Assembly (NCBI GenBank): GCA_038064835.1
Contig: JBBTSD010000010.1
Span: 1-61,958, forward strand
Direction of reading: 5' to 3'
Source of the DNA: Patescibacteria group bacterium
Lineage (GTDB): Bacteria > Patescibacteriota > Minisyncoccia > Phycocordibacterales > UBA2100
DNA: 61,958 nucleotides
The position numbers and the translations under genes were made by a program. How positions within the stretch are numbered: position 1 is the first letter of the stretch; each line of letters starts with the position of its first letter. The notes under the pieces are model-generated. The model made no database searches, was not told the origin of the DNA, and was given only the letters and a program-made list of their open reading frames with translations. Positions 1-61,568 of the stretch are shown one piece after another.

Positions 1-1185
<1,185 letters not shown>

Positions 1186-32161: not shown

Positions 32162-32971
32162 TTAGCGGCTAATAAGCCGTTTAGTGAGGTTTACATCAGC
32201 AAGGAGCTCCTCACTGTTCCTCAACTTTCTCACAATACGGTACCAGGATGTGGGCACATCAGTTACTGTGGGCGCGACTGTACGCATCCACTCCATATGA
32301 AGTCCGACATCCCCCGTGTGTGGATTACGCCTCGTATAGTGAAGAATCTGGCAGTTCTTCATACCCGCCCTTCCCCCATCAGCAAAATGCTCGCGAGCAA
32401 ATTCTTCCGGGGTCATGTCTTCGTACAAAATACGAAGTGCCCAGAGCACCTCTCCGTGAGCGACGAGCAAAACCCGCTTTCCTATATATTCGCGAGCAAA
32501 CCGATCGCGCATGATTTCAAGACGCACACACACATCGGAGAGCCGTTCGCCTCCGTGTGGACGAAAGAAGTACGGTTCCTCATGTCGCTGTTGCAAAGCG
32601 ACACGAAAGGCTTCGAGACGACCCTTTTCGGTCATTTGTGTAAGAATGCCCCAGTCCCGCTCGTGCAAGTAGGGGCTTACCTCCCACAATGCACCAGGCA
32701 AATCTAAGTATGCGGCACTTTCTCGTGCGCGTACAAAACCCGAAACAAAGTGGGCGTCAAAAGGCGCCTCTGCGGTGAGATGTTTTTGTATCCATGTGGA
32801 CGCGACCCTTACCTGCTCAACTCCCTTGTCGGTCAAGCGAAACTGCGCATCCTGTCGCCGAAGGAATTCGGGCGTGAAGTCACTGTCGTCAGCATGGCGC
32901 GACCGACGGGCGGCCAAGTTTATCTCTGATTCTCCATGTCGCATAGCGACAATGTCGATGGGCATCGGCAT
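32162..32971 (-). CDS. histidine phosphatase (PGAM-like) family protein
   Basis: The RHG motif is VAMRHGESEINL. Also FVSGFVRARESAAYL, and a second His in LLVAHGEVLWAL. Confidence 0.8.
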   Translation of the reverse strand: MPMPIDIVAMRHGESEINLAARRSRHADDSDFTPEFLRRQDAQFRLTDKGVEQVRVASTWIQKHLTAEAPFDAHFVSGFVRARESAAYLDLPGALWEVSPYLHERDWGILTQMTEKGRLEAFRVALQQRHEEPYFFRPHGGERLSDVCVRLEIMRDRFAREYIGKRVLLVAHGEVLWALRILYEDMTPEEFAREHFADGGRAGMKNCQILHYTRRNPHTGDVGLHMEWMRTVAPTVTDVPTSWYRIVRKLRNSEELLADVNLTKRLISR

Positions 32972-34453: not shown

Positions 34454-36415
34454 CTATTCAACCACAGCAGCTTCGAGCGCTGAAAAACCCTGGTCATCGA
34501 GCAGGTTAGTGTTTACCGCAGGATGATCCGTCTGAGTTACTGCGGTGGTGAACACATCTACCCCCTTGAAGGTAAGTGCACGGATTATTTCCGGTTGCTG
34601 ACCCACCTGACTCGACGACGGTGTAAATCCAACTGCAAATGCTACCTGCCGGGGCGGGACCGTCCCCACGCCCGCGCTTTGTGTAATATCCCCCACCGTC
34701 CACGATATAGTCCCGTCGAGCGAGTTGAATGTGATGCGCTCTTGGGCTGGGCTATACACACCAATCCATCGGACATAGGGCGGTAGCTCTGCGGTAACTA
34801 CTGCGTCCTTTATTTTGTTCGAGGTGTTTAGAAGGGTCAGCACCACTGCATAGGTCGTTTCTTCATTTACCTTTGGCGGCAAAGGTCCTACGCTCCCAAA
34901 CGGGTTTGAGTAGTAAAATCCTTGTGCAATAAGTTTTACATTTGATGCGAGCTTCAGTGTCTTGGTTACAGACGATTGAAGTGTTTCCGGAACCGACGAT
35001 TCGGCAATACGCTTGCCCGCCGCATGCACTGCAATATCGACAGCTGCCTCGCGCACCGATGCGATATCGCTTTCGGGTGGGACTTGAAACGAGAACGATA
35101 CTGTTCCTCTCTCACCTGGTTCGAGTACTTCGAGTACCCCGCGAGTTGTGGATTTATCAAACAAAATCGTGTTGTCGGCAGAACGATAGAAGCCATCAGG
35201 TGTCTTGACGCTTCCTTTGGCAACAGGCAGACCCGACAGGCGCGCCACAATGACTGCGTTAGTAATAGGTGTGGTCAGGTTATTCACCCACGGAATACCG
35301 ATAGTTACTGTGTCCCCTGCAGATATAACTCCCGCCTGCCCGTCGTTGGTGATTCTATTAACCAAAATGTCGAGACCTATGAATGGTCGTTCTATAACAA
35401 TCCGATGCACAGATTCTGCTAGAACAATATCTGTTTGTTTGTTTGTTTTCAGCTTTCTAGTGCCAGCCCGTGCACGGAATGTCCGATCATCACCTGCCTG
35501 TCCGGTAATTGTTCCGCGCACCGAGATAATTTTCTCGTCACCAGGACGAATATCTCCAAGCTCCCACACATCCCCATGAGCAGGTTCTGGTGTTCGTGAG
35601 TCGACGGTAAATCCGAATGGATATTCCATCTCAAGCAGCGCGTCCTTGAGCACTGTATCCGACCCTGAAGTCACTTTGGTGGTAAGGAGTATGCGCTGTC
35701 CTGGTATTGCCTCCTTGTTTGCCTCGAGCGAGAGCGAGAGCGGTGACGAGGAGAATGTAAACGGATACTCTTGTGGTGCAACAAAAATGGCACCTGAATT
35801 CGCAACGCGATACTCAAGTTCAACATGCACTAACCCTCGCGCGCTTTCCTTGCCGATAAATACTGCAGATACAGTTCCTTGGCGGCGCCCACCAGGCTCA
35901 ATACTGCCAAGAGCTATCCGTTGCTGTGGTAAATCGGTTATAAAATCTGTAGGCGAACGAGTGCCGTCAGGATATTTTACAATCAGATCAGCAAGCTCGA
36001 GCATGGCTTGATTACGGTTTACTACCGATATCTGCAACTCTGCTGGTTCGCCACCCACCACAAACGCAGGGCCACGCACACTGATATCGATATTACCCGG
36101 TGCGGCAACTGTTCCTCCTGACCCCACGGTGAAGTAATAAAAGAATATTCCCGCTGACCCGATAAAGAATACAACCGAACCGATGAGCGACCACCACAAT
36201 ACCCTGTTTGCCGCGGCTATAACCTTTGGGGCAAGTGTTGTCCCTGATACTCCAGCATCATGGTCTTCCCACTCGGAGGGCACACCGTAATCGATCGGTT
36301 TGAGCTCGCGACGAGGTCGTGTACGAATACCCTTTGAGAGAGCCCGAGAGTACATGGTCTGTCGAAGCTCGCGAAGTTTTTCGCTACGCGTAATATCTTC
36401 CTCATTCTCGAACAT
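34454..36415 (-). CDS. large membrane-anchored hypothetical protein
   Basis: 653 aa with a single N-terminal TM helix (VLWWSLIGSVVFFIGSAGIFFYYF) and a beta-rich ectodomain. Confidence 0.7.
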   Translation of the reverse strand: MFENEEDITRSEKLRELRQTMYSRALSKGIRTRPRRELKPIDYGVPSEWEDHDAGVSGTTLAPKVIAAANRVLWWSLIGSVVFFIGSAGIFFYYFTVGSGGTVAAPGNIDISVRGPAFVVGGEPAELQISVVNRNQAMLELADLIVKYPDGTRSPTDFITDLPQQRIALGSIEPGGRRQGTVSAVFIGKESARGLVHVELEYRVANSGAIFVAPQEYPFTFSSSPLSLSLEANKEAIPGQRILLTTKVTSGSDTVLKDALLEMEYPFGFTVDSRTPEPAHGDVWELGDIRPGDEKIISVRGTITGQAGDDRTFRARAGTRKLKTNKQTDIVLAESVHRIVIERPFIGLDILVNRITNDGQAGVISAGDTVTIGIPWVNNLTTPITNAVIVARLSGLPVAKGSVKTPDGFYRSADNTILFDKSTTRGVLEVLEPGERGTVSFSFQVPPESDIASVREAAVDIAVHAAGKRIAESSVPETLQSSVTKTLKLASNVKLIAQGFYYSNPFGSVGPLPPKVNEETTYAVVLTLLNTSNKIKDAVVTAELPPYVRWIGVYSPAQERITFNSLDGTISWTVGDITQSAGVGTVPPRQVAFAVGFTPSSSQVGQQPEIIRALTFKGVDVFTTAVTQTDHPAVNTNLLDDQGFSALEAAVVE

Positions 36416-36471: not shown

Positions 36472-37041
36472 TTACAAATTCGTTGCGGTCAGCGCACCGT
36501 TTACCCGGGCAGCCATATCTATCCGAGCAGCCCGAACTGTTTGCATATCGGTTTCGGTGTAAAGTGCATGGGCAAACAAAGCTTCGGTGAGACCCTCTTT
36601 CGAGATGTACCCTAGTGCATAGAGCATGCGTGTCACACACAGGAGCTCGGTATATGCTCGCACAGCGTCGGATCCGAGCGTCTCCCGAGCATTGACCAGT
36701 GTCTCGAAGAGATAGTCGTTACGGTCTTCTCCATGAACGAGGCGCAAGAGGAGCGAGGTAATCCTTGAAAACATTTCGGCATCTGCGTACGCAAGTGGCG
36801 GACAGACGAGTGCACTGCTCCCTACCAATCGCCACCCACGCTTTCCTTTCACGAGCGAAACCGAACTTCGCGCAAAAGTGGCCAGGCCATATCGCAGACG
36901 CGACGATTCGCGTCGTGCACTACTCGCACGGGCGCGCACCAAACCAAAGTCACGAGTGAAAAGGACGAACACTCTGTCTGCGTCTCCATACTCGCGAGCG
37001 CCCAACACAAGCGCTGGTGTGGTGTATTTTTCGTAGGCCAT
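36472..37041 (-). CDS. recO: DNA repair protein RecO (short)
   Basis: TTPALVLGAREYGDADRVFVLFTRDFGLVRARASSARRESSRLRYGL fits the RecO N-terminal OB pattern. Confidence 0.7.
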   Translation of the reverse strand: MAYEKYTTPALVLGAREYGDADRVFVLFTRDFGLVRARASSARRESSRLRYGLATFARSSVSLVKGKRGWRLVGSSALVCPPLAYADAEMFSRITSLLLRLVHGEDRNDYLFETLVNARETLGSDAVRAYTELLCVTRMLYALGYISKEGLTEALFAHALYTETDMQTVRAARIDMAARVNGALTATNL

Positions 37042-37053
37042 ACTACGACCATG

Positions 37054-37344
37054 TTACTCCATGTGCCCACTCGGATACTGAGTACGAAGATCGGACAGGA
37101 AGTCGTCGAGCGCTTCGCGAGTGTCTTTTTGTATACGCATGGCAACCTCGCGACACGCCTGCACAAATTCTTCGGTAGTACCAAATGCCTCGGCGCGTTC
37201 GGCCAAACGCGCCATGTCAGCCTCATATTGTTTGTCGTAGGCACCGATGATGGCATCGACTGCTTCATTTATATCAGCAAGCTCGACGCCGTGCTTCTCG
37301 ATAACCTCGTCGATCATCTTTTTCAGGTCTTCAGGGTTTTGCAT
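37054..37344 (-). CDS. hypothetical helical protein
   Basis: The start is placed tentatively at Met39 (MQNPEDLKKMIDEV) of the 134-aa ORF. The longer ORF overlaps the upstream ORF by 128 nt. Confidence 0.4.
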   Translation of the reverse strand: MQNPEDLKKMIDEVIEKHGVELADINEAVDAIIGAYDKQYEADMARLAERAEAFGTTEEFVQACREVAMRIQKDTREALDDFLSDLRTQYPSGHME

Positions 37345-37723
37345 AGCGTGTTTCAACACCAGTGAGACGCGTTTCAACCACCGAAGCCTTTCGTTTAATT
37401 GCATCTGCCAGTGCTCCAAAAAACTCACTGGTATCAGCGACTGTTTTTGAGACCGCACCTTTCAGCATTGGAGCGTTACTTGGGGACGCAATGCGCGCCG
37501 CACCTGCTATCCCAAGGTACCCTGTATTAACGACAATGCGTAGTGCACTCAGAAGAGTTGTTCGCGCAAGAACCCCCCGCGAATCTCGATATTCTCGCTC
37601 GATGGTTGCAAGCGCCGCTTGAACGATTGGATCTGCCAAACGCCCACTGATTTCCGCTTTTATAGTAGGGACATCTTTCCCTGTCCTCCAGTCATCAACG
37701 ACTTTATTTATACCTTCTCCCAT
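37331..37723 (-). CDS. hypothetical protein
   Basis: 130-aa ORF immediately downstream of ileS. Confidence 0.45.
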   Translation of the reverse strand: MGEGINKVVDDWRTGKDVPTIKAEISGRLADPIVQAALATIEREYRDSRGVLARTTLLSALRIVVNTGYLGIAGAARIASPSNAPMLKGAVSKTVADTSEFFGALADAIKRKASVVETRLTGVETRYAKP

Positions 37724-37727
37724 CTGT

Positions 37728-40700
37728 CTATTCTAACATCAGATTTTCGCCTCCAAACGAAATAGTCCCCACCTGGGCAACCCGTGCGAGTTCGGTCCGT
37801 GCAAATTCAATACTCTCTCGCATACTTTCCGGAACCCGCAAGCGCGCCGGCTCCCCCGGCTTCAAACCCTTCTTTTTGCGTAGGTCTTGGACCGTACGCA
37901 GTACATCGCGCACTTCTCCCTCTCGCCTTAATTCGTCTGAAATGACTGTATCCAAACGCGCCGCATCTGCACTCTGTGTATCCACTACTACCTCTTTTAC
38001 ATTGAGCTCATCCTTCACAAGACCTAGCAGTTGTTCCGGAACAGCTGTTTTTATAGTGACCGATTGCAGAGGCTGACGGACTTTGATATTTGCTGCCGCC
38101 CGTGCTTCGAGCCCTACTGAAATAAGAAGCCGGATTTTTTTCATCTCCGCCAATAATTTTTGTTGGTCATTTGAAAGTGGCGTACTAGCAGGCCAGTCTG
38201 CAAGATGTACGCTCTCTTTCTCTCCCCCGAGTTCACGATAGATGTGTTCCGCCACAAATGGCATAAATGGCGCCGTAACTTTGGAAAATTCTCGCAGGAC
38301 ATAATGCAGTGTCCCCAACGCCGACGCCTTGTCAGTTTCGTCTTCCCCTTTCACCCTGTCGCGCGACCTGCGCACAAACCATGTTGAGAGGTCGTCGATG
38401 AAGTCTGCAAGCGGTCGTGCGGCACGGTCAACCTGGTACGCATCGAGAGCTCCTGAAACGGTGACGATGAGTTCTTGTAGCCGAGCAAGTATCCAACGAT
38501 CAAGGACCTGCGCACTCTCTCCAGACGGGGTGTGCGGGTATTCGCGGAACAGATTGTAAAACGAGAGTACATTAAGGAGACGGCCATTATTTTTCTTCAG
38601 AATCTCGTCTACCACTTTCTCGTCAAAATTTTTCGAAGCCCCCGGCTCGTTCACGGTAAACATCCAGTAACGAAGCGCGTCCACACCATACTTTGGAATC
38701 ATATCCCACGGCTTGATGACATTCCCGAGCGACTTTGACATTTTCTTGCCCTTGTCATCAAGCAAATGCCCGAGCGAAATGACATTTTTGTACGACATCC
38801 CTCGTCCCATCAAAACACCAATCGCATGAAGTGTGTAAAACCACCCGCGCGTCTGGTCGATTGCTTCAGAAATAAAGTCTGCAGGGTACCCCTTACCATC
38901 AACCCATTCTTTGTTTTCAAATGGGTAATGATCTTGGGCAAATGGCATGGCACCCGAGTCGAACCATACATCCATGACTTCCTGTATGCGCTCGTACTCT
39001 TCTCCTTCGTGAACGAGCTTTACTTCGTCGATAAACGGACGATGTACATCACATTCATATTCAGCGTTGTGTGGTAGTGGAGTAAAATCAAGCGTGCGAA
39101 TTTCTGCTGTTTTGAGGTAACTGTTTTTAACAATCTGAAGCGCTCGCTCTTTTGAAGCGCCTTCGGCCACAGCCGCGGCCATCCAAGTAGTATCTCCGTG
39201 CGCCACGATAAAGACCGTTTCGTTTTTATGCGATGCGTCAATGGTATAGAGAAATTCGCCAACACGACGGCGCACATCTCCCACACTCTCGCCACCATCC
39301 GGCTTGTTCTCAAATACAGAAGGTGTGTCTGGAAATGCCTGGTTGTACTCTTTGAGAGTTTTTCCCTCATAACTCCCGAGTGCAATTTCGGTCAGCCGCT
39401 TGTCGGTAACTACCCTCTCTGAAGGTACCCCCAGAACTTCAGCGACAATTTTTGCAGTCTCTTGAGTTCGCGTGAGTGGTGACACATAAATATAGTCGAC
39501 TTTCGGACCCTTGTAGGCAGTGGCAGCTGCACGAACTTCGTTCTTCCCTTTCTCGGTCAGCGAAATCTTCTTTGCAGGATCGGAGCTCAAAATACCTGAT
39601 GCATTTGATTCTGCATCACCATGACGCATCATGAAATACTGATTACTGGAACGGTTCGCCATTTTTTCACGGAGCTCCGAGAGAGACCCGACTACTAACA
39701 TTTTCCCTGTTTTGGAAAGCCAGATAGGTAGCGGTGTTCCCCAATAACGATTCCGACTTATCGCCCAGTCCTTTACTTCTTTAAGCCACTCTCCAAAACG
39801 CCCGTCGCGAATGTGCGCCGGTTCCCAGTGGATTTTTTGATTCTCCGTCATGAGCTCTGCACGGAGAGCCGACATACGGATATACCAGGAATCACGCGCA
39901 TAATAGATGAGCGGTCGCTTGCAACGCCAACAATGCGGGTACGCATGCGTTGTTTCTTCGGTTTTGAGCACCTTATCACCAAGCGCAACAATCACTTTCT
40001 CGTTCGCGTCCTTGACGAACACACCGGCAAATTCAATCACCGCATCGATAAATTTCCCTTCCTCATTCACCAAATGATGTTTCGGGAGACCGACCTTTGT
40101 GCCCATGTCGAAGTCTTCGGCACCGTACATAACAGCGGTATGCACAACTCCGGTACCGTCTTCAGTAGTTACAAAATCAGCAGCATATATCTTGTATGCA
40201 TTAGGAAGTTTGTCTTGTTGCTCTTTAGGAAGCGAGTCAACTAGATACGGAAAAAGAGGTTCATACACGCGCCCCACCAACTCACTCCCCTTTTTTTCTG
40301 CAATCACCGTAGCTCCTGCCAACACTGAAAGTCGTTCGGTTGCAACCCATATTTTTTTGTCAGCAATCTGTGTGAGTGAATATGAAATTTTATCACCTAC
40401 CGCGAGCGCCACATTCCCAGGGAGAGTCCACGGCGTTGTCGTCCACGCGGCAATATGTTCGTCGGAGTCGCGTAATTTGAAAGCCACGAATACCGATGTG
40501 TCAGTTACATCTTTGTATCCATCGGCAACTTCATGGGAAGACAATGGTGTGCCGCACCGAGCGCACCAGGGCACAACGCGGTAGTCTTTATAGAGAAGAC
40601 CTCGTTCGTGTACTTTTTGTACGATATGCCATACCGACTCTATGTATTCGTTTGCAAAAGTAAAATAGGTTTGTGAGTGATCAACCCAAAATCCAATACG

Positions 40701-41102
40701 GTCTGTAAAATCTTTCCATTCCCCGATATAGCGCAAAACGCTTTCCTTGCACTTCGCATTGAATTTTTCAACACCGTAGGCCTCGATATCCTTTTTGTTT
40801 TTTAGACCCAGCTCTTTTTCGACTTCAAGCTCGACAGGAAGTCCGTGCGTGTCCCATCCCGCTTTTCGGCGCACGCGAAACCCCTGCATGGTTTTATAGC
40901 GCGGAATAAGGTCTTTGAATGCGCGCGCTTCCAGGTGGTGAATTGCAGGATGGTTGTTTGCCGTTGGTGGCCCCTCATAGAAGACAAAGTCGCCTGCAGG
41001 CGCCTCTCTCTCGAGAGACTTTTTGAATATATCGTTTTCTTTCCAAAATTGTAGAGTCGCCTCCTCGCGGAGCGCTGTTTCACTCTTTGGTTTCTCTTCC
41101 AT
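37728..41102 (-). CDS. ileS: isoleucine--tRNA ligase with an inserted histidine-phosphatase domain
   Basis: The HIGH region is PPTANNHPAIHH. Editing-domain motifs TTTPWTLPGN and GTGVVHTA are present, along with WAISRNRYWGTPLPIW and the KMSKS motif. It is 1124 aa, about 190 aa longer than usual, because of an in-frame PGAM-like insert at residues ~487-680. Confidence 0.93.
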   Translation of the reverse strand: MEEKPKSETALREEATLQFWKENDIFKKSLEREAPAGDFVFYEGPPTANNHPAIHHLEARAFKDLIPRYKTMQGFRVRRKAGWDTHGLPVELEVEKELGLKNKKDIEAYGVEKFNAKCKESVLRYIGEWKDFTDRIGFWVDHSQTYFTFANEYIESVWHIVQKVHERGLLYKDYRVVPWCARCGTPLSSHEVADGYKDVTDTSVFVAFKLRDSDEHIAAWTTTPWTLPGNVALAVGDKISYSLTQIADKKIWVATERLSVLAGATVIAEKKGSELVGRVYEPLFPYLVDSLPKEQQDKLPNAYKIYAADFVTTEDGTGVVHTAVMYGAEDFDMGTKVGLPKHHLVNEEGKFIDAVIEFAGVFVKDANEKVIVALGDKVLKTEETTHAYPHCWRCKRPLIYYARDSWYIRMSALRAELMTENQKIHWEPAHIRDGRFGEWLKEVKDWAISRNRYWGTPLPIWLSKTGKMLVVGSLSELREKMANRSSNQYFMMRHGDAESNASGILSSDPAKKISLTEKGKNEVRAAATAYKGPKVDYIYVSPLTRTQETAKIVAEVLGVPSERVVTDKRLTEIALGSYEGKTLKEYNQAFPDTPSVFENKPDGGESVGDVRRRVGEFLYTIDASHKNETVFIVAHGDTTWMAAAVAEGASKERALQIVKNSYLKTAEIRTLDFTPLPHNAEYECDVHRPFIDEVKLVHEGEEYERIQEVMDVWFDSGAMPFAQDHYPFENKEWVDGKGYPADFISEAIDQTRGWFYTLHAIGVLMGRGMSYKNVISLGHLLDDKGKKMSKSLGNVIKPWDMIPKYGVDALRYWMFTVNEPGASKNFDEKVVDEILKKNNGRLLNVLSFYNLFREYPHTPSGESAQVLDRWILARLQELIVTVSGALDAYQVDRAARPLADFIDDLSTWFVRRSRDRVKGEDETDKASALGTLHYVLREFSKVTAPFMPFVAEHIYRELGGEKESVHLADWPASTPLSNDQQKLLAEMKKIRLLISVGLEARAAANIKVRQPLQSVTIKTAVPEQLLGLVKDELNVKEVVVDTQSADAARLDTVISDELRREGEVRDVLRTVQDLRKKKGLKPGEPARLRVPESMRESIEFARTELARVAQVGTISFGGENLMLE

Positions 41103-41196: not shown

Positions 41197-41928
41197 TTAT
41201 GCAGCCGCGATAGTCGCGACAGACTGGCTGACCTGGTTCAGTGCACGACGCACCTCGCGCGGATCAGCCTTTGGGGTGAGAATCTTCGAGATTCCCATCG
41301 CCCCGAAGAGGCTCGTATACCGGCCGACAGCTGATTCGTCTTCGGCGGCACCGATGCCGGTGATGTAGTCACCCTCGCTGATGATTGCGGCGAACTCGGG
41401 CGGCGAACCACTGTCACCAGCGGGCTCGTCATCCGTGAGGATGATCATTGCCACAGTGGTTTGGATTCCCTTGTCCCTCTGGACCTGCGCTTTCGCATGA
41501 AGGTCTGTGAGCAAGACAATCGAGTCGTGCACGATCGGGGTATTCGCCCGACCAGCCGCATAGGAATCGACAGCGTTCTCGGGAATGTCCCGAATCATGC
41601 CGTCGAAGTAGACATCTCCTTTGAAGCCGACACCCTTGATGTAGAAGTCGGCCCCTTTGGCGCCCCGAAAGGCGTTGATCGAGAGGGCCAGTCCTTCACG
41701 GATGGCGCCCTCCAATCCCCGGCCGGCAATAGATCCGGAGTTGTCGGCAAGAATACCGACAATCACCAGACGATCACGATTGGGCTGGACCAGCCCCCCT
41801 CCTACAGGAGTGGTGCTGCTCCCAGCGCGCTGACCGACTCGCTGGTAGTCCACCGGAGGTGGCGCACCTGCGCCAGAACCGGGAGCCTTCAGGAACTTGT
41901 CGAGGTCGACATGTGGTGCGTTGCTCAT
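41197..41928 (-). CDS. von Willebrand factor A (TerY-like) protein
   Basis: The MIDAS motif is DNSGS (ILADNSGSIAG), with downstream Thr (ANTPIV) and Asp (IILTDDEP). Its start overlaps the kinase stop (ATGA). Confidence 0.8.
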   Translation of the reverse strand: MSNAPHVDLDKFLKAPGSGAGAPPPVDYQRVGQRAGSSTTPVGGGLVQPNRDRLVIVGILADNSGSIAGRGLEGAIREGLALSINAFRGAKGADFYIKGVGFKGDVYFDGMIRDIPENAVDSYAAGRANTPIVHDSIVLLTDLHAKAQVQRDKGIQTTVAMIILTDDEPAGDSGSPPEFAAIISEGDYITGIGAAEDESAVGRYTSLFGAMGISKILTPKADPREVRRALNQVSQSVATIAAA

Positions 41929-43037
41929 GCTACTTTCTCCTTGGGTTGGGTTTCAGTCTGTCCGCGCGCCGCGACCGGCGTGCGATCTGCCCGTGCCTGC
42001 GGCACGGGAGATTCTACTGACCCGAACAGATTTCTGTCAGGCACAAATCGTTCACCATCGACGAACATGCGCTTGAATGCGTCATGGAACGGCGCAGGGA
42101 TTTGATTGAGTGGTCGTGCAGTCGCCGGGTATTTCACCGACTTATCGAAGACCGTGACCCGCCCCATAATTCGTTGAGGAAGATCCATGCCGTCAATAGT
42201 ACCTGCGTAGGGATCTGTGTATGTGAGCATACGCATGGCGATAACCATGAAGCTGTACCAATCGGTCAGTTCGGCGTGGGGTGCCACCAGGCAGAACTGC
42301 GCACCCAAGGGTGGCGTTACTGCCCAATGGTAGATATTCCCCGCCAGTCGTTTGAGGAACAGTTTTCTCAAGATGTGGGCAGTAACACGCCCAATCCCCT
42401 TCAAAATAGCCCTGCCATACTTGCCGGCTCGATTCGGATTGACCGTGCCGATTATTTCCGGCGCAGTGAAGCGTGGAGTAAATGCACGGCACAGAAACCC
42501 CGCATACTGCATCGAGTCGATCTCGATGAAGTGCGGCACCGCTCCTTTCCGTGAGACGATTACATTGAACTCATTTAAGTCACCTACAACCATGCCCTTC
42601 TGGTGAAGGGCACTGATCGTGTCGTGCATCTTGCCGAGCACTTCAAGCGCATACCCTTGGGGCAAATGCGCCTGAGGGCTCGTCATCGCGTCGATGGTAT
42701 ACCCGTCGACAAACGGCATGATATACCCCATCACAATCCCACTGGGGATTACGAGAACAGCGCTTGGCTGAACCACATTTTCGGGAAGCCCATCCGGAAT
42801 CTTGAACAGCTTTTGTTGCATGTCCGCAATACGGACCTTTGCCGCTTCCTGGAGCGGCTCCTGGCCGACGAGTTCGTCGCATCCGGGTGTATGGAATACT
42901 TTCGCGACAAGTCCCGGCTTCAAGCGATATACAACCGCCTCACCACCGCGACCGACCTCCTCAAACCTTCCTTGTTGCCATGAGGTAACCTCAACGCGGG
43001 GGATCTCTCCCATGTGTCCATCTCCTTTCTCAGACAT
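41925..43037 (-). CDS. atypical Hanks-type Ser/Thr protein kinase
   Basis: The Gly-rich loop is VGRGGEAVVY, followed by VAKVF (VAxK). The catalytic loop is VVGDLNEFNVIV (D..xxN) and the metal-binding motif is IEIDS. Its start overlaps the PP2C stop (TAATG). Confidence 0.75.
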   Translation of the reverse strand: MSEKGDGHMGEIPRVEVTSWQQGRFEEVGRGGEAVVYRLKPGLVAKVFHTPGCDELVGQEPLQEAAKVRIADMQQKLFKIPDGLPENVVQPSAVLVIPSGIVMGYIMPFVDGYTIDAMTSPQAHLPQGYALEVLGKMHDTISALHQKGMVVGDLNEFNVIVSRKGAVPHFIEIDSMQYAGFLCRAFTPRFTAPEIIGTVNPNRAGKYGRAILKGIGRVTAHILRKLFLKRLAGNIYHWAVTPPLGAQFCLVAPHAELTDWYSFMVIAMRMLTYTDPYAGTIDGMDLPQRIMGRVTVFDKSVKYPATARPLNQIPAPFHDAFKRMFVDGERFVPDRNLFGSVESPVPQARADRTPVAARGQTETQPKEKVA

Positions 43038-44257
43038 TACTTCTGCGACACTTTGGGTGGGGTGCCACTTTGTGGTGGATTCACCTTTTGTGTCGGTGGC
43101 GGTGCTGGAGGTGGAATGTAACTGACGATGTCCATTCCAACTGTCTGCAAGACGCGCACCATCCAGGTATCGTCAGAGGCAACGAATTTGTCGGCAAGCC
43201 GATTTCGTAGACGAGTTACCTCGTCCATCAATCGCTTGATGTCTTCAGCGGCCTTTCGCTCCGCCACTTCGCGGACTTGGCGCACACTTTCTGTACTACG
43301 CTTCGCAACCTCTATGTCTTCTCGCGACCTCTTGAGAGAAGCCTCGAGTCGATCGTTTTCTCTTTCGAGATCCTGGAAGTCAGTGCGTAGAGTTGCCAAC
43401 TCGCTCATGGTCGCATCAAAGCGACCTCTGAGCTCGGCAACCTCGTTCCGCTCCGCCTCGAGACGCATTTGCGCCTCGTTGGAACGCAGAATAAGTATGG
43501 TGGTATCGTCGCCGCACTTGCCAAAGGCAAATGCACCGTTGACAAAGCGCTCGGTCGCCTGGCTATCGAGCCAGCTCCTGAGCGCCCCTTCCTTCATCAA
43601 TCCCGGATGGTAGATACTCTCGTCGCCGATGAGCGATTCAACACCATCGGTACCAACGACTATACCTTTTTGTACACTTCCTAAACTGACTTCTGCAACC
43701 GGCACGAGTGCCAGATGCTTCTTCAGCTCGTCGGTGTGATATCCGGTCTTTTGGAGAAGTGCGTAGCCCAGATAGGGCGGCGCATTCAGCGTTGCGAGCG
43801 GCGGATCCATGTAGGTCGTTTTGCCATCAATGGCAAAAACGCCGTCTCCACACGCAGCGATAACGACCTGGTCATCGTAGGTCACCACCACAAGAGCGGT
43901 GAACAACAGATAGTCAGCGACCACCTGCTCGAACTCGGGAACACTGGACTCAGTCTTCCCGGTCAGCGTTTGCGCAATTTTGCGCAATTCATTTAGCGTG
44001 GCGCGAGTAATCCCCGGCCAATTGAGACTGACCCCGGCAGTATGATTGACTTGGCGCAGAACCTCTCCTGCGATAATGCGTGCGCCGATAGTGGCGCCCA
44101 CATCAGTGTGCGGACGAGAGCCACAGCCATCGCACAAAACGGCAACAATGCCATGATCGTGCTCGACGGCCGTGTACGCATCTTGGTTATTCTTCTTTCC
44201 ACCCTGTCCAGGCAGAACATGATCTGATCCAACGACACTTTCGATCGCGTAGTGCAT
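43037..44257 (-). CDS. PP2C-family Ser/Thr phosphatase with a C-terminal coiled coil and Pro-rich tail
   Basis: PP2C motifs: KKNNQDAY, AVLCDGCGS, ACGDGVFAIDG and VGTDGV. The C-terminal ~130 aa are heptad-like (EAERNEVAELRGRFDATMSELATLRTDFQDLERENDRLEASLKRS). The tail is PPPAPPPTQKVNPPQSGTPPK. The start is placed at ATG 44257, which has an AAAGGAAA RBS; the ORF-track GTG at 44302 remains possible. Confidence 0.8.
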   Translation of the reverse strand: MHYAIESVVGSDHVLPGQGGKKNNQDAYTAVEHDHGIVAVLCDGCGSRPHTDVGATIGARIIAGEVLRQVNHTAGVSLNWPGITRATLNELRKIAQTLTGKTESSVPEFEQVVADYLLFTALVVVTYDDQVVIAACGDGVFAIDGKTTYMDPPLATLNAPPYLGYALLQKTGYHTDELKKHLALVPVAEVSLGSVQKGIVVGTDGVESLIGDESIYHPGLMKEGALRSWLDSQATERFVNGAFAFGKCGDDTTILILRSNEAQMRLEAERNEVAELRGRFDATMSELATLRTDFQDLERENDRLEASLKRSREDIEVAKRSTESVRQVREVAERKAAEDIKRLMDEVTRLRNRLADKFVASDDTWMVRVLQTVGMDIVSYIPPPAPPPTQKVNPPQSGTPPKVSQK

Positions 44258-44365
44258 CCCATTTCCTTTCTTTTTGATTTTCGAAGAGCTGCGTGTTGCC
44301 ACACAGGTCTGATTGGAACCTACTATGATTTTTGCACTGTGTCAAGTTTCCGCCCGCCTTCGCTT

Positions 44366-44420
44366 AGAAGCTGTCTAAATCTTTCCCCCTGTCAGGAAAC
44401 CTAGATTTTAGACAGCTTCT
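44366..44420 (-). terminator. long hairpin at the argS stop, upstream of the PP2C operon
   Basis: AGAAGCTGTCTAAA (44366-44379) pairs with TTTAGACAGCTTCT (44407-44420), forming a 14-bp perfect stem. The 27-nt loop contains an inner TTTCC/GGAAA pair. There is no clear U-tract. Confidence 0.45.
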
Positions 44421-46090
44421 TACATCTTTTCAGGCGCTGAAATACCGAGGAGTTTTAGACCGTTTTTAAGTGTTGCACGCACAGCACAAACAGTCGCGAG
44501 CCTGTCCGCAATCACCTCTTTCTCACCGTCAAAAATCCGTTCCTGTGCGTACCATGCATTGAAGGCGCTCGCGACTTCAATGATGCTGTGAGCAACTAGG
44601 TGTGGTGCATATTCTCGTGCGCCCCGCTCGGCACTACCAGGAAACCTCAACAGCAATCGCTCCACCAACCGCGTATCAGTGTTGGCCATGCGTAGTGGTA
44701 CAACACCCTCTTGCACACTGCGCTCGATAATTGCCGAAGCGCGGGCATGCGCATACTGCACATAGGGCCCGGAGTCGCCATCCAAGGTAAGCGCTCGCTC
44801 CTCGTTAAAAATCATATCTTTCCCGATTTCTTGGCGAAGCACCTGGTACTTGATTGCCCCCACTGCAACCTGTTCAGCAAGCTTTTCAAGATCATCTGCC
44901 CGTGTGTCTTTGGCACGCACATGAGCGCTCACGATCAAATCAGAAAGGAGCCCATCGCCCGTGACAATATTCCCGGTGCGCGAACTCATTTTTCCGCTTT
45001 CGAGGCGCATCATGCCATGGGCCACATGCGTGAGTTTGCGCGCAATGTCAGGATAGATACATTCCATTGCTTTTTTCAATACTTTAAAATAGTCAGTAAC
45101 TTCGTTCGCTGTCACAATAAGCAGCGCACTTACATCCGGGTAGTCCTCTATTTTCATCTGTTCAAGTCCGAGCTCTTTTGCTTCGTAGGTGGGCAAGCCT
45201 TTGGCGTTCAAAAACACACGCGTATGCAAGCCATGCTCTTCCCCACGAAATACCCGAGCCCCTTCAGATTCGGGAAACACTTCGGGGTGTGCCAGCACAA
45301 TTTCTTTTCCCCGCGGGCCGGTAACACTTTCAAAGTAGTAGTGATCAAATCTGGTGCCGAGCGTACGGTACAGCACCTCGAACGCATCAAGGGATTTTTG
45401 TCTACCTTCGTCGTATAAATTGTTCAACACCTTATCGCTTCTCTCGAAGAGTTTTGTATTTATGGCATCAATCTCTTTTTTTATTAATTCGTCTTCTTTG
45501 TACGCCTGTGCTCCTGTTGCGTATGCCTTGCCGAAGTCGGCGACTGTGCTTGCCTGGATTCCCAACTTCTGGATTCCCCAGATAGCGCATGCCACATGTA
45601 CACCCGTATCTCCTTGGTAGTTTGCTCGTACGACCTGTGCACCATTGTTTTCAATAAGCCGCGCAAGTGATTCTCCAATCGCATTACTCATCAGGTGTCC
45701 GATATGGAACACTTTAAATGGGTTTGGATCGGTATATTCCACCATGACCCGCTTTCCTGTAAGAGTGCCGCCACTACCCCAAGTATCTGGGGTTTGTACA
45801 ATCTTATTTATAGCTCCTGCGTTATATTCCTGTGAAAGCCAGATGTTTACAAAACCTGGACCAGCCACTTCACTCCGCGCAACACCTGGGCATCCTGCAA
45901 GTCCTTCACTTAGTTCTTGAGCAAGGACCTGAGGCGATATTCCTGCTTCCTTTCCGTATATAAGCGCCGCGTTTGTCATGTAATCACCATGCGCGATATC
46001 TGAGGGAAAATTGACTACCGGATTAGCAGTCACACCACGCTTCACAAGCACCCCACAAAGCGCTTGTTGTATCGAGTCCCGAACTGTCAT
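44420..46090 (-). CDS. argS: arginine--tRNA ligase
   Basis: YTDPNPFKVFHIGHLMSNAIGE is the HIGH region. MSSRTG is the KMSK-equivalent. The C-terminal DALR anticodon-binding domain contains YVQYAHAR. Confidence 0.93.
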   Translation of the reverse strand: MTVRDSIQQALCGVLVKRGVTANPVVNFPSDIAHGDYMTNAALIYGKEAGISPQVLAQELSEGLAGCPGVARSEVAGPGFVNIWLSQEYNAGAINKIVQTPDTWGSGGTLTGKRVMVEYTDPNPFKVFHIGHLMSNAIGESLARLIENNGAQVVRANYQGDTGVHVACAIWGIQKLGIQASTVADFGKAYATGAQAYKEDELIKKEIDAINTKLFERSDKVLNNLYDEGRQKSLDAFEVLYRTLGTRFDHYYFESVTGPRGKEIVLAHPEVFPESEGARVFRGEEHGLHTRVFLNAKGLPTYEAKELGLEQMKIEDYPDVSALLIVTANEVTDYFKVLKKAMECIYPDIARKLTHVAHGMMRLESGKMSSRTGNIVTGDGLLSDLIVSAHVRAKDTRADDLEKLAEQVAVGAIKYQVLRQEIGKDMIFNEERALTLDGDSGPYVQYAHARASAIIERSVQEGVVPLRMANTDTRLVERLLLRFPGSAERGAREYAPHLVAHSIIEVASAFNAWYAQERIFDGEKEVIADRLATVCAVRATLKNGLKLLGISAPEKM

Positions 46091-57633: not shown

Positions 57634-57709
57634 GGTGGTCGTAGCTCAATGGTAGAGCACTCGGTTGTGGTCCGAGTGGTTGTGGGTTCGAGTCCCATCG
57701 ATCACCCCA
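57634..57709 (+). tRNA. tRNA-His (GTG) with genome-encoded G-1 and CCA
   Basis: The cloverleaf was folded by hand. Acceptor: GTGGTCG/CGATCAC. D stem: GCTC/GAGC. Anticodon stem: CTCGG/CCGAG, loop TTGTGGT. T stem: GTGGG/CCCAT, loop TTCGAGT. The extra 5' G lies opposite C73, and CCA is encoded. Confidence 0.92.
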
Positions 57710-60464: not shown

Positions 60465-61568
60465 CTAGACTCTTAATATTTTTAGAAGCTCCGAGAATAT
60501 GTAGACACTTTCTCTACCCTGCCCATCATATTCCTTTAATACACCTGCTTCTACAAATTTAGCTATCAGATTATAGGTCGTTCCCTTACTGCTTGCTTTA
60601 ATAGCTTCTCGTACATTTGCAGCCGTTATAATCGGGCTTTTAAAGATAGCGTCTAAAACAGCTATTGCGTGCTGTGATCTTATTTTCCCCACAACATCCT
60701 CTTTCAAGCGCTCGTAGAGTGCCTGTATTTCTTTTGCCATGACAGTTGTTCGTTTTGCTTGAAACTCAACAGCGATAAGAAAGAATTTAAGCCACGGTAT
60801 CCATTCTTGGTCTGTATCTACGGCATGCAAAAGACGCTGATACTCCACCTTGTGTTCTTCAAGGTGATGGCTGATAAACAACACGGGCGTTTGCAAGACT
60901 CTCTCTTGGCACAAGAACAAGGGTATGACGAGGCGTCCAATTCTTCCATTGCCGTCCATGAATGGGTGAATCGCCTCAAATTGATAGTGCGCAACTCCTA
61001 TCCTGACCAATACATCAGTTTCAGCATCTGAGTTTAGATATTTCTCCCAATTACTCATCAGACCAGAAATATCTGTATGCACAGGCGGTATATAATCACC
61101 CACCCTCACTTGCTCTTTTCTAAAGTTTCCACGATCTTTATTTGCTCCTCTCACCGAATCAAGAAGAACACTGTGGGTAGCTTTGAGAAGAGTTTCGGCG
61201 ATAGGACGCTCTTTTAATTTTTTTAAAGCAACACTCATTGCCTGTTCGTAATTCATAACCTCTTTGATGTCTTGAACCTTCCGACTCATCTCTTCTTTTT
61301 CGGGGTTAGCTTTTGATTCATCCAAGGCTTCATATTTGAGAACCTCTTCAAGAGTTGCTCGTGTACCTTCTATGGCTGAACTAGCGACAGCCTCCCTTTT
61401 TCTAAAGGGAGCAATCAAAAGATCGGGATTTGGTATTGCGTCTAAAAATCCTCTTAACTCACCGACCGCCGCGTGAGCGGCAGTAAGCTCTCTCATTAGA
61501 GGTTCATATGAGAGTTTGGGCGGGAGTTCTTTTACCTTTGTTGGTTTTATTTCTTTTGATTCCGACAT
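60465..61568 (-). CDS. Fic family protein (AMPylase/adenylyltransferase-type)
   Basis: The Fic motif is HPFMDGNGRIGRL. A C-terminal wHTH-like segment is present. The gene looks AT-richer than its neighbours by eye. Confidence 0.88.
   Translation of the reverse strand: MSESKEIKPTKVKELPPKLSYEPLMRELTAAHAAVGELRGFLDAIPNPDLLIAPFRKREAVASSAIEGTRATLEEVLKYEALDESKANPEKEEMSRKVQDIKEVMNYEQAMSVALKKLKERPIAETLLKATHSVLLDSVRGANKDRGNFRKEQVRVGDYIPPVHTDISGLMSNWEKYLNSDAETDVLVRIGVAHYQFEAIHPFMDGNGRIGRLVIPLFLCQERVLQTPVLFISHHLEEHKVEYQRLLHAVDTDQEWIPWLKFFLIAVEFQAKRTTVMAKEIQALYERLKEDVVGKIRSQHAIAVLDAIFKSPIITAANVREAIKASSKGTTYNLIAKFVEAGVLKEYDGQGRESVYIFSELLKILRV

Follow-up and report, generated by a model that had tools for sequence, protein, structure and literature searches.

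The isoleucyl-tRNA synthetase (IleRS) gene ileS of a Patescibacteria group bacterium lies in a 61,958-nucleotide stretch of contig JBBTSD010000010.1 (assembly GCA_038064835.1; the whole stretch is called the window here). It encodes a type-2 enzyme within which a complete histidine phosphatase is predicted to be nested, at the subdomain known as connective peptide 3 (CP3). The same architecture recurs across a large clade of Parcubacteria/Paceibacteria, a part of the candidate phyla radiation (CPR); sister lineages carry the phosphatase as a separate gene just ahead of ileS, and valyl-tRNA synthetase (ValRS) of another CPR class has acquired such domains at the homologous loop. We think it probable, if only just, that these observations are together explained by a nested and active phosphatase, conserved as a partner of IleRS and serving a role linked to the synthetase.

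The host enzyme has the features of a chromosomal synthetase. The first-pass annotation of the window, made from its sequence alone, had described an uninterrupted IleRS reading frame of 1124 residues, and so it proves (Table 1). Pfam recognizes tRNA-synt_1 (in two stretches), His_Phos_1, Anticodon_1 and DUF5915, and the ileS equivalog model TIGR00392 is matched at 857.8 bits (cutoff 621.4), in two stretches that flank the insert. The N-terminal part of the protein holds the first Rossmann half, the CP core, the CP1 editing domain, CP2, the CP2-3 linker and the N-terminal arm of CP3, and the C-terminal part holds the other arm of CP3 (HRPFID), the second Rossmann half with DVWFDSG, the KMSKS motif, the anticodon-binding domain and the C-terminal junction. 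The nearest structural relatives of the host in the PDB are IleRS of T. thermophilus (1ILE) and IleRS2 of P. megaterium (8C8W), at E ~1e-230, and an AlphaFold2 (AF2) model of the full-length protein has a predicted local distance difference test score (pLDDT) of 92.9 and a predicted template-modelling score of 0.87. No second ileS was found within the 62-kb window.

The class I signature of the window enzyme is the non-canonical AIHH, and this G/AxHH form is near-invariant among its closest homologues (Table 1), taken here as the best 120 matches to the window IleRS in a collection of 5.8 billion proteins and coming from NCBI, JGI, ENA and Logan assemblies (hereafter the orthologues). In IleRS2 enzymes the swapped motif is catalytically competent and confers mupirocin hyper-resistance (Brkic et al., bioRxiv 10.1101/2023.01.31.526100). 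Because ileS scores above its curated cutoff, KMSKS is intact and G/AxHH is known to be active, the host appears to be an intact and competent type-2 IleRS; moreover, the spread of G/AxHH among the orthologues, together with its link to mupirocin in IleRS2, predicts that the entire clade is intrinsically insensitive to the drug. The models for MupA and MupB (NF000257/NF000258) score 728–742 bits, short of their 'exception' cutoff of 1900, and the window protein is best regarded as a chromosomal IleRS2 rather than as either of these mupirocin-resistance enzymes.

The boundaries of the insert were set by alignment to 1ILE, in which window residues 12–480 correspond to T. thermophilus 13–479 and 684–1004 to 488–819, leaving ~203 residues (481–683) in place of an 8-residue CP3 loop. 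The insert had been put at residues ~487–680 in the first-pass annotation; its coordinates (39063..39644) do encode exactly those residues, and the true insertion is wider. CP3 is the segment from the DWxxSRNRYWG element to the second Rossmann half (CP domain names follow PMC7191050 and PMC7955072), and it extends over residues 473–534 in Candida IleRS and 459–526 in yeast IleRS (PMC7191050). It is a plastic element, because its topology differs among the solved IleRS structures, namely those of T. thermophilus (with zinc), S. aureus and Candida (PMC7191050). The four zinc cysteines of CP3 in T. thermophilus are absent from the window protein in this alignment. The phosphatase starts at the CP3 tip, ~30 residues after the CP2-3 linker (residues 445–455), a segment whose yeast counterpart (453-ARDWNVSRNRYWG-465) forms part of the wall of the pocket that receives the tRNA 3′ (CCA) end and reveromycin (PMC7955072). 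The earlier suggestion that the phosphatase sits beside the aminoacylation site is not supported, the insert being located in the peripheral CP3 subdomain.

The insert is confidently predicted to adopt the phosphoglycerate mutase (PGM)-like alpha/beta fold of histidine phosphatase branch 1. An AF2 model of residues 478–690, built on 38 sequences, has a pLDDT of 95.6, and Foldseek places PhoE (1H2E) and PspA (4IJ5/4IJ6) at the top of its PDB matches, with template-modelling (TM) scores of ~0.72–0.75 and 20–27% identity. The monomeric PGM of S. pombe, a histidine-family phosphatase of the riboflavin pathway (9MMH), GpgP and CobC are also matched; the Foldseek probability is 1.00 to PhoE, PspA, cofactor-dependent PGMs (dPGM), TIGAR and CobC, and 303 PDB chains are found at E ≤ 0.001. 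A sequence search of the PDB agrees that PhoE/PspA-type proteins are nearest, and the nearest folds are all branch-1 small-molecule phosphatases or mutases. The match to Pfam PF00300, proposed as a check in the first-pass annotation, is significant, its 127.5 bits standing against a gathering cutoff of 21.7 and covering profile positions 2–169 of 194.

That annotation had also recognized four signature motifs in their expected order within a complete in-frame domain, and these are borne out (RHG at 493–495, SPLTR at 541–545, E572 and H635), with the catalytic set intact throughout the 120 orthologues (Table 1). In addition, S541 is invariant in all 120 and N500 is kept in 114. The linkers joining the module to the synthetase are likewise conserved, as 'SGNxY' on the N-terminal side and 'FxPLPHNxxYE' on the C-terminal side, N487 being present in 120 of 120 and the PLPHN motif almost invariant. 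This pattern gives firm support to maintenance of the putative catalytic site by selection, and the domain is probably an active phosphomonoesterase that works via a phospho-H494 intermediate.

Across a large Parcubacteria/Paceibacteria clade, IleRS normally has the phosphatase-bearing form. PF00133 and PF00300 occur together in all 120 orthologues (52–68% identity; 1104–1270 residues), those with names being Parcubacteria, Paceibacteria, Kaiser-, Campbell- and Zambryskibacteria. Among GTDB species-representative genomes, at least 572 stretches with the nested form were confirmed; Nomura-, Lloyd- and Taylorbacteria and Minisyncoccia are represented, as are two complete genomes of ~0.7 Mb. A profile search against 1.84 billion cluster representatives returned 501 proteins at a threshold of E ≤ 1e-30. 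The insertion is therefore no oddity of one genome. It had been envisaged in the first-pass annotation that the segment might be a common lineage-wide insertion of a different fold; it is lineage-wide, and its fold is that of His_Phos. Misassembly or a chimera is ruled out by the same architecture in the orthologues and the GTDB stretches and by a composition that is flat over both junctions (GC 0.483 in the insert, 0.489 in the remainder of ileS).

Within the orthologues, the insert is the least conserved region, with a mean identity to the window protein of 41% as against 58% elsewhere, and its length is confined to 202–221 residues. Distances in the insert correlate with those in the host (Mantel r = 0.43, a value reached in 0 of 999 permutations), which fits vertical co-inheritance after an old capture. 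That the nested domain is real, ancient and clade-wide is thus firmly supported.

The phosphatase also exists as a gene of its own. The profile search recovered complete proteins of ~190–205 residues made up of the phosphatase part alone, and a search with one of these (P0241) as query gave 514 relatives at E ≤ 1e-15, of which the best 120 are all 184–215 residues long with PF00300 alone, and those that are named are Parcubacteria or Paceibacterota. All seven informative contigs (L081, L082/L083, L084, L089, L090, L091 and L092) show the order argS, free-standing phosphatase, insert-less ileS (931–989 residues), small ORF (open reading frame) and recO, and the phosphatase stop and the ileS start are either separated by 1–41 nt or overlap by 11 nt. 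On one of them (L092, 4501..5682) two tandem phosphatase genes precede the insert-less ileS, mirroring the tandem nested copies described below. The partner enzymes belong to at least two IleRS subtypes, 36% and 44% identical to the window enzyme, and both subtypes retain a short Cys-rich CP3 hairpin.

At 80 sampled species loci where the phosphatase is nested, argS is followed by ileS::phosphatase, recO and a conserved 653-residue ORF. Synteny with argS is seen at 55 of these 80 loci and in all of the free-standing cases, and in 31 of the 55 the argS–ileS gap is below 570 nt, too short for a phosphatase gene. Another His_Phos ORF is present at one locus (L008, 2779..3450), where a divergent example (48.9 bits) lies between argS and the insert-bearing ileS; besides this, no leftover free-standing copy was found at the 80 loci. 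As a rough background control, 80 unrelated valS loci (766 kb in all) contain a single His_Phos ORF, ~4 kb from valS. These data firmly support a conserved pairing of phosphatase and IleRS, and their alternation between neighbouring and nested states – a classic gene-neighbour/fusion signal – points to a functional association.

Public annotation of the two forms is uneven. Three free-standing phosphatases of 194–197 residues (P0278, P0295 and P0307) carry the JGI label 'isoleucyl-tRNA synthetase', a name presumably carried over from annotation of the nested form, and the NCBI label of the true nested IleRS is merely 'class I tRNA ligase family protein'.

Capture of the domain by a synthetase has recurred. 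Pfam finds two to four His_Phos_1 domains in several IleRS and ValRS representatives. Tandem pairs occupy the CP3 site of IleRS in P0186, P0221, P0225, P0236 and P0264; other copies lie between DxWFxSG and DQTRGW (P0158, P0175, P0240) or past KMSKS, at the start of the anticodon-binding domain (P0175, P0213, P0240, P0256); and the ValRS proteins P0121 and P0262 contain four and two copies, respectively. P0175 (L087, 6001..10260) is a 1419-residue IleRS of another subtype, with two phosphatase domains at non-CP3 positions (ahead of DQTRGW and past KMSKS), and the arrangement is reproducible, its type being present on six contigs of up to 1.06 Mb. The locus has no argS/recO synteny, and because the neighbouring genes encode DAHP synthase, adenylosuccinate synthase and an SLH-domain protein, the organism is probably not a Paceibacterium.

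Among the best 120 relatives of ValRS P0262, 73 contain PF00300, the named ones being Peregrinibacteria and Gracilibacteria. In 66 of these 73, the stretch from WCISRQ..WG to DTWFSS harbours one copy or more. This is the loop homologous to the IleRS CP3 site, which measures ~43 residues in insert-less ValRS and here accommodates one to three tandem copies; P0396–P0513 and L088 are ValRS entries of Gracilibacteria/Peregrinibacteria set beside P0121 and P0262. The ValRS capture appears to have been independent of that in IleRS, at the homologous CP3 loop. The R-H-R-E/D-H residues are kept in every complete copy examined, whether nested, tandem, in ValRS or free-standing, with the exception of the first ValRS copy of P0262, which aligns Ala at the acid position. 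In a neighbour-joining tree of 66 domain copies, these cluster by site and host; the tree is star-like and gives neither the direction nor the number of capture events.

Table 1. Features of the nested synthetase-phosphatase gene and its conserved neighbours in the window
Feature	Position	Strand	Basis
ileS, type-2 IleRS with nested phosphatase	37728..41102	-	single 1124-residue ORF; TIGR00392, 1ILE/8C8W, AF2
IleRS N-terminal part, residues 1–480	39663..41102	-	aligned to 1ILE 13–479; Pfam tRNA-synt_1, residues 16–488
Class I signature AIHH, residues 53–56 (non-canonical)	40935..40946	-	G/AxHH in 119/120 orthologues
CP2-3 linker, residues 445–455	39738..39770	-	CP3 and insert emerge from the linker
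Predicted nested histidine-phosphatase module, residues 481–683	39054..39662	-	1ILE alignment, AF2, Foldseek
Pfam His_Phos_1 (PF00300) match, residues 490–657	39132..39635	-	E=6.7e-37, 127.5 bits
RHG motif: R493, putative nucleophile H494, G495	39618..39626	-	120/120, 120/120 and 119/120 orthologues
R545, second phosphate-binding Arg (predicted), SPLxR motif	39468..39470	-	120/120 orthologues
E572, predicted general acid	39387..39389	-	114 E and 6 D of 120 orthologues
H635, second catalytic His (predicted)	39198..39200	-	120/120 orthologues
IleRS C-terminal part, residues 684–1124	37731..39053	-	aligned to 1ILE 488–819; Pfam Anticodon_1, DUF5915
KMSKS, residues 787–791	38730..38744	-	kept in 119/120 orthologues
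argS (ArgRS), conserved upstream neighbour	44420..46090	-	Pfam; synteny
recO, conserved downstream neighbour	36472..37041	-	Pfam RecO_N; synteny

In the window itself, the slot between argS and ileS that holds the free-standing phosphatase in sister lineages is occupied by three co-oriented genes (41197..44302, minus strand), which encode a 243-residue protein with no Pfam match (vWA-like by eye), a kinase-like protein (weak RIO1/Pkinase matches; PADLOC PD-T4-6 at 3.7e-7) and a PP2C_2 phosphatase. These genes have a GC of 0.56–0.64, compared with ~0.48 in their neighbours. None of the 80 related loci has the trio, which appears to be a window-specific island, and this absence rules it out as an explanation of the nested phosphatase. 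Two overlapping small ORFs (130 and 134 residues, no Pfam match; 37054..37723, minus strand) lie between ileS and recO and have no BLASTP match in the 80 loci; loci with the free-standing phosphatase have a small ORF of 87–178 residues, of no family, in the same position. The 653-residue ORF (34454..36415, minus strand) has no Pfam family, stands directly downstream of recO in most of the 80 loci, and is apparently a clade-specific conserved protein.

A second His_Phos_1 protein in the window, of 269 residues (32162..32971, minus strand), is flanked by a class II aminoacyl-tRNA synthetase (aaRS) gene and an AI-2E transporter gene. The first-pass annotation had drawn attention to it as a free-standing histidine phosphatase, which it is (Pfam E=1e-22); as a relative of the insert it counts for less, belonging to a different subfamily, and the identity of only 26% rules out the insert as a recent duplicate of it. 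Elsewhere, a Fic/DOC protein (60465..61568, minus strand) gives a near end-to-end match to the PADLOC anti-phage 'SoFic' model (E=1.2e-110), a bacterial 23S rRNA, truncated by the window start, is represented by its 5′ 1141 positions (1..1180, minus strand, 903.9 bits), and a tRNA-His lies at 57635..57709.

In the reading that we prefer, a working, essential type-2 IleRS of a Parcubacteria/Paceibacteria (CPR) bacterium would bear, on the small plastic CP3 hairpin of its Rossmann core, a complete PhoE/PspA-like branch-1 histidine phosphatase. A gene of ~195 residues, carried by sister lineages in the argS–ileS slot, would in effect have been relocated into ileS, such that the pair is made as one polypeptide. 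H494 would attack the substrate to give a phospho-histidine, with R493, R545 and H635 holding the phosphate and E572 acting as the acid. The job of the phosphatase would be tied to the class Ia synthetase and not to general metabolism, with no channelling to the aminoacylation pocket and with the aminoacylation chemistry unchanged. As a protein that works in trans, in several copies and from at least four loops, the phosphatase is unlikely to channel directly with the aminoacylation site, and the free-standing form, the tandem copies and the other loops also argue against a geometry-dependent action on the aminoacyl-adenylate (Ile-AMP) or ATP in the synthetic site, as had been suggested at first. 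Because all of the nearest structures act on small molecules, we tentatively favour a diffusible phospho-ester as the substrate class – either a nucleotide or else a metabolite or inhibitor that is phosphorylated and matters to Ile/Val charging – while rating this part of the proposal at somewhat less than an even chance. Its ranking ahead of the tRNA 3′ end is weakly held.

Several points weigh against this reading. Every NCBIfam phosphatase equivalog falls below its cutoff, so no substrate can be read from the sequence or assigned by homology: CobC reaches 83.3 bits (cutoff 162.9), PspA 70.5 (350), archaeal dPGM 78.3 (225), SixA 42.8 (74.5) and PRK13462 42.4 (226). A role on a diffusible substrate leaves the choice of IleRS and ValRS as hosts unexplained. 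All seven adjacency cases come from one bacterial class, and that signal could be partly inherited synteny; the shared CP3 site in IleRS and ValRS could similarly reflect the tolerance of CP3 to insertion and nothing more.

The alternative that survives best, itself unlikely, is that the domain acts on tRNA ends and would give class Ia editing synthetases a third catalytic site. A phosphate, cyclic phosphate or pyrophosphate at the 3′ end of tRNA-Ile (or, in ValRS, tRNA-Val) would be removed, allowing damaged or toxin-modified tRNA to be re-charged in a repair or proofreading step analogous to CP1 editing, and IleRS of Paceibacteria and ValRS of Gracilibacteria/Peregrinibacteria would each have gained the domain at CP3 by convergence. 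The location of the insert favours such a role, since CP3 grows from the CP2-3 linker (DWxxSRNRYWG) that lines the tRNA 3′-end pocket (PMC7955072). So does the convergent insertion at the homologous ValRS loop in another CPR class; both hosts are class Ia enzymes that already move the CCA end between two sites, and the domain is without the C-terminal lid tail of the mutases, because its C-terminus re-enters IleRS. The E. coli CCA-adding enzyme has an HD phosphatase domain for 3′-end repair, and the tRNA CCA end is a target of pyrophosphorylation by toxSAS/CapRel toxins; to our knowledge, however, no branch-1 histidine phosphatase acts on RNA ends, and all of the nearest structures are small-molecule enzymes. 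The copies at the start of the anticodon-binding domain, those between DxWFxSG and DQTRGW and the free-standing form also fit poorly with a fixed CCA path.

Nor do charge and defence-system searches lend weight to a tRNA-end substrate. Nested copies are acidic (median isoelectric point 5.5) and free-standing ones basic (9.2), and charge follows lineage composition, the isoelectric point of each phosphatase tracking that of its own IleRS and neighbours, which have a GC of 0.32–0.36. As a composition effect, charge was dropped both as a clue to RNA binding and as a sign of electrostatic complementarity between the free-standing phosphatase and IleRS. PADLOC gave no match for either the nested or the free-standing phosphatase, and membership of a defence system is accordingly not supported.

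Rather unlikely, too, is that the phosphatase is a passenger: a neighbouring housekeeping gene shifted into a permissive loop, fixed by drift in a symbiont with a small population, and keeping an unrelated metabolic job. CP3 is structurally variable and probably tolerant of insertions, synteny around ileS is strongly conserved by descent in the class, CPR bacteria have small genomes dense in genes, the closest relatives are metabolic phosphatases of a generic type, and action in trans shows that fusion is dispensable. Against this stand the independent capture by ValRS in another CPR class, at a homologous site and in 73 of 120 relatives, and the further independent insertions at other IleRS loops in an organism without argS–ileS synteny. 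Adjacency has moreover been retained across the two IleRS subtypes (36% and 44% identical to the window enzyme), copy number has been amplified up to three to four, and the background rate of His_Phos ORFs near a class Ia synthetase gene is ~1 in 80.

We consider it very unlikely that the domain is a protein phosphatase that reverses inhibitory phosphorylation of the synthetase or a partner and so could counter kinase toxins. SixA, PGAM5 and Sts-1 show that the superfamily includes phosphatases acting on proteins, and the insert has a weak match to SixA (below cutoff, as given above). The kinases HipA and HipT inactivate GluRS and TrpRS by phosphorylation, a phosphatase in cis would constitute built-in immunity, and kinase-like and PP2C genes lie just upstream in the window. 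That trio is missing from all 80 related loci, however, and hence offers no clade-wide explanation; the best sequence and fold matches are of PhoE/PspA type and not SixA type, and we know of no kinase that targets IleRS or ValRS. Finally, a catalytically dead structural or tRNA-binding module, or an artefact of assembly or annotation, is scarcely credible: loss of the four zinc-knuckle Cys of T. thermophilus CP3 and conservation of both linkers (N487 in all orthologues, PLPHN nearly invariant) could suggest a structural replacement, but the catalytic pentad, E572 included, is kept in more than 100 divergent copies with one possible ValRS exception, free-standing orthologues exist, and the architecture recurs in hundreds of independent assemblies, complete ~0.7 Mb genomes among them, with no compositional break at the junctions.

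Under the reading that we prefer – an active nested phosphatase with a synthetase-linked role – an essential synthetase would house a whole second enzyme in its catalytic core, in hundreds of species from a major uncultivated radiation of bacteria, with the active site of that second enzyme conserved over deep divergence. Two independent signs of partnership, the alternation of neighbouring and nested forms at ileS and the convergent capture by ValRS, raise the question of which phospho-substrate bears on Ile/Val charging in CPR bacteria, for which natural cis and trans versions exist. If the substrate is a metabolite, the domain would connect metabolism with translation in minimal cells in a new way; if it is a tRNA end or the synthetase itself, the domain would add a new level of quality control in translation or of resistance to toxins, and in the case of tRNA ends a previously unknown aaRS-borne repair or proofreading activity. 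The nested form also leads to annotation errors in public databases. Accessory domains of aaRSs (editing, tRNA-binding, GST, WHEP and others) have been catalogued, and phosphatases are not among them: the curated domain catalogue of AARS Online has no phosphatase entry, and full-text literature searches found no published description of a phosphatase in IleRS or ValRS, in keeping with the statement in the first-pass annotation that no IleRS with an embedded phosphatase was known to have been described.

Compared with known systems, the host resembles IleRS2 (1ILE, 8C8W) in its AIHH/GIHH motif, KMSKS and complete domain order, and differs in that CP3 holds an enzyme of ~200 residues where known IleRS2 has a hairpin of ~40 residues, and in lacking the CP3 zinc cysteines. 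The insert shares fold and size with PhoE (Geobacillus YhfR, 1H2E/1EBB) and PspA (4IJ5) (Foldseek E ~1e-13, TM 0.73–0.75, root-mean-square deviation 2.6 A), as well as the catalytic RHG, N, R, E and H at ~25–27% identity; those proteins are free-standing, whereas the insert is nested in the catalytic core of another enzyme and has its own subfamily signature, 'GNxY', ahead of RHG. A CobC-like branch-1 phosphatase is also joined to a nucleic-acid enzyme in the Rv2228c-type RNase H/acid phosphatase (NF005567), whose phosphatase half the insert matches at 82.4 bits (cutoff 326), although that fusion is end-to-end, with a different partner, and not nested.

The architectural precedent is the CP1 editing domain of IleRS, ValRS and LeuRS, which is likewise hydrolytic and likewise lies within a connective-peptide loop of the Rossmann fold. 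CP1 is universal and ancient and acts on an aminoacyl ester, whereas the insert has an unrelated fold and predicted phosphoryl-transfer chemistry, is restricted to certain clades, and is replaceable by a separate gene. A curator-recognized IleRS family with an extra enzyme domain, ileS_w_GNAT (NF040702), carries an N-acetyltransferase instead, and the window protein matches its model via the IleRS parts only (311 bits, cutoff 1999). The window enzyme thus falls into a known category, that of synthetases in which one more enzyme domain is nested, and what stands out is its breadth, the alternation between cis and trans forms, and the convergence with ValRS.

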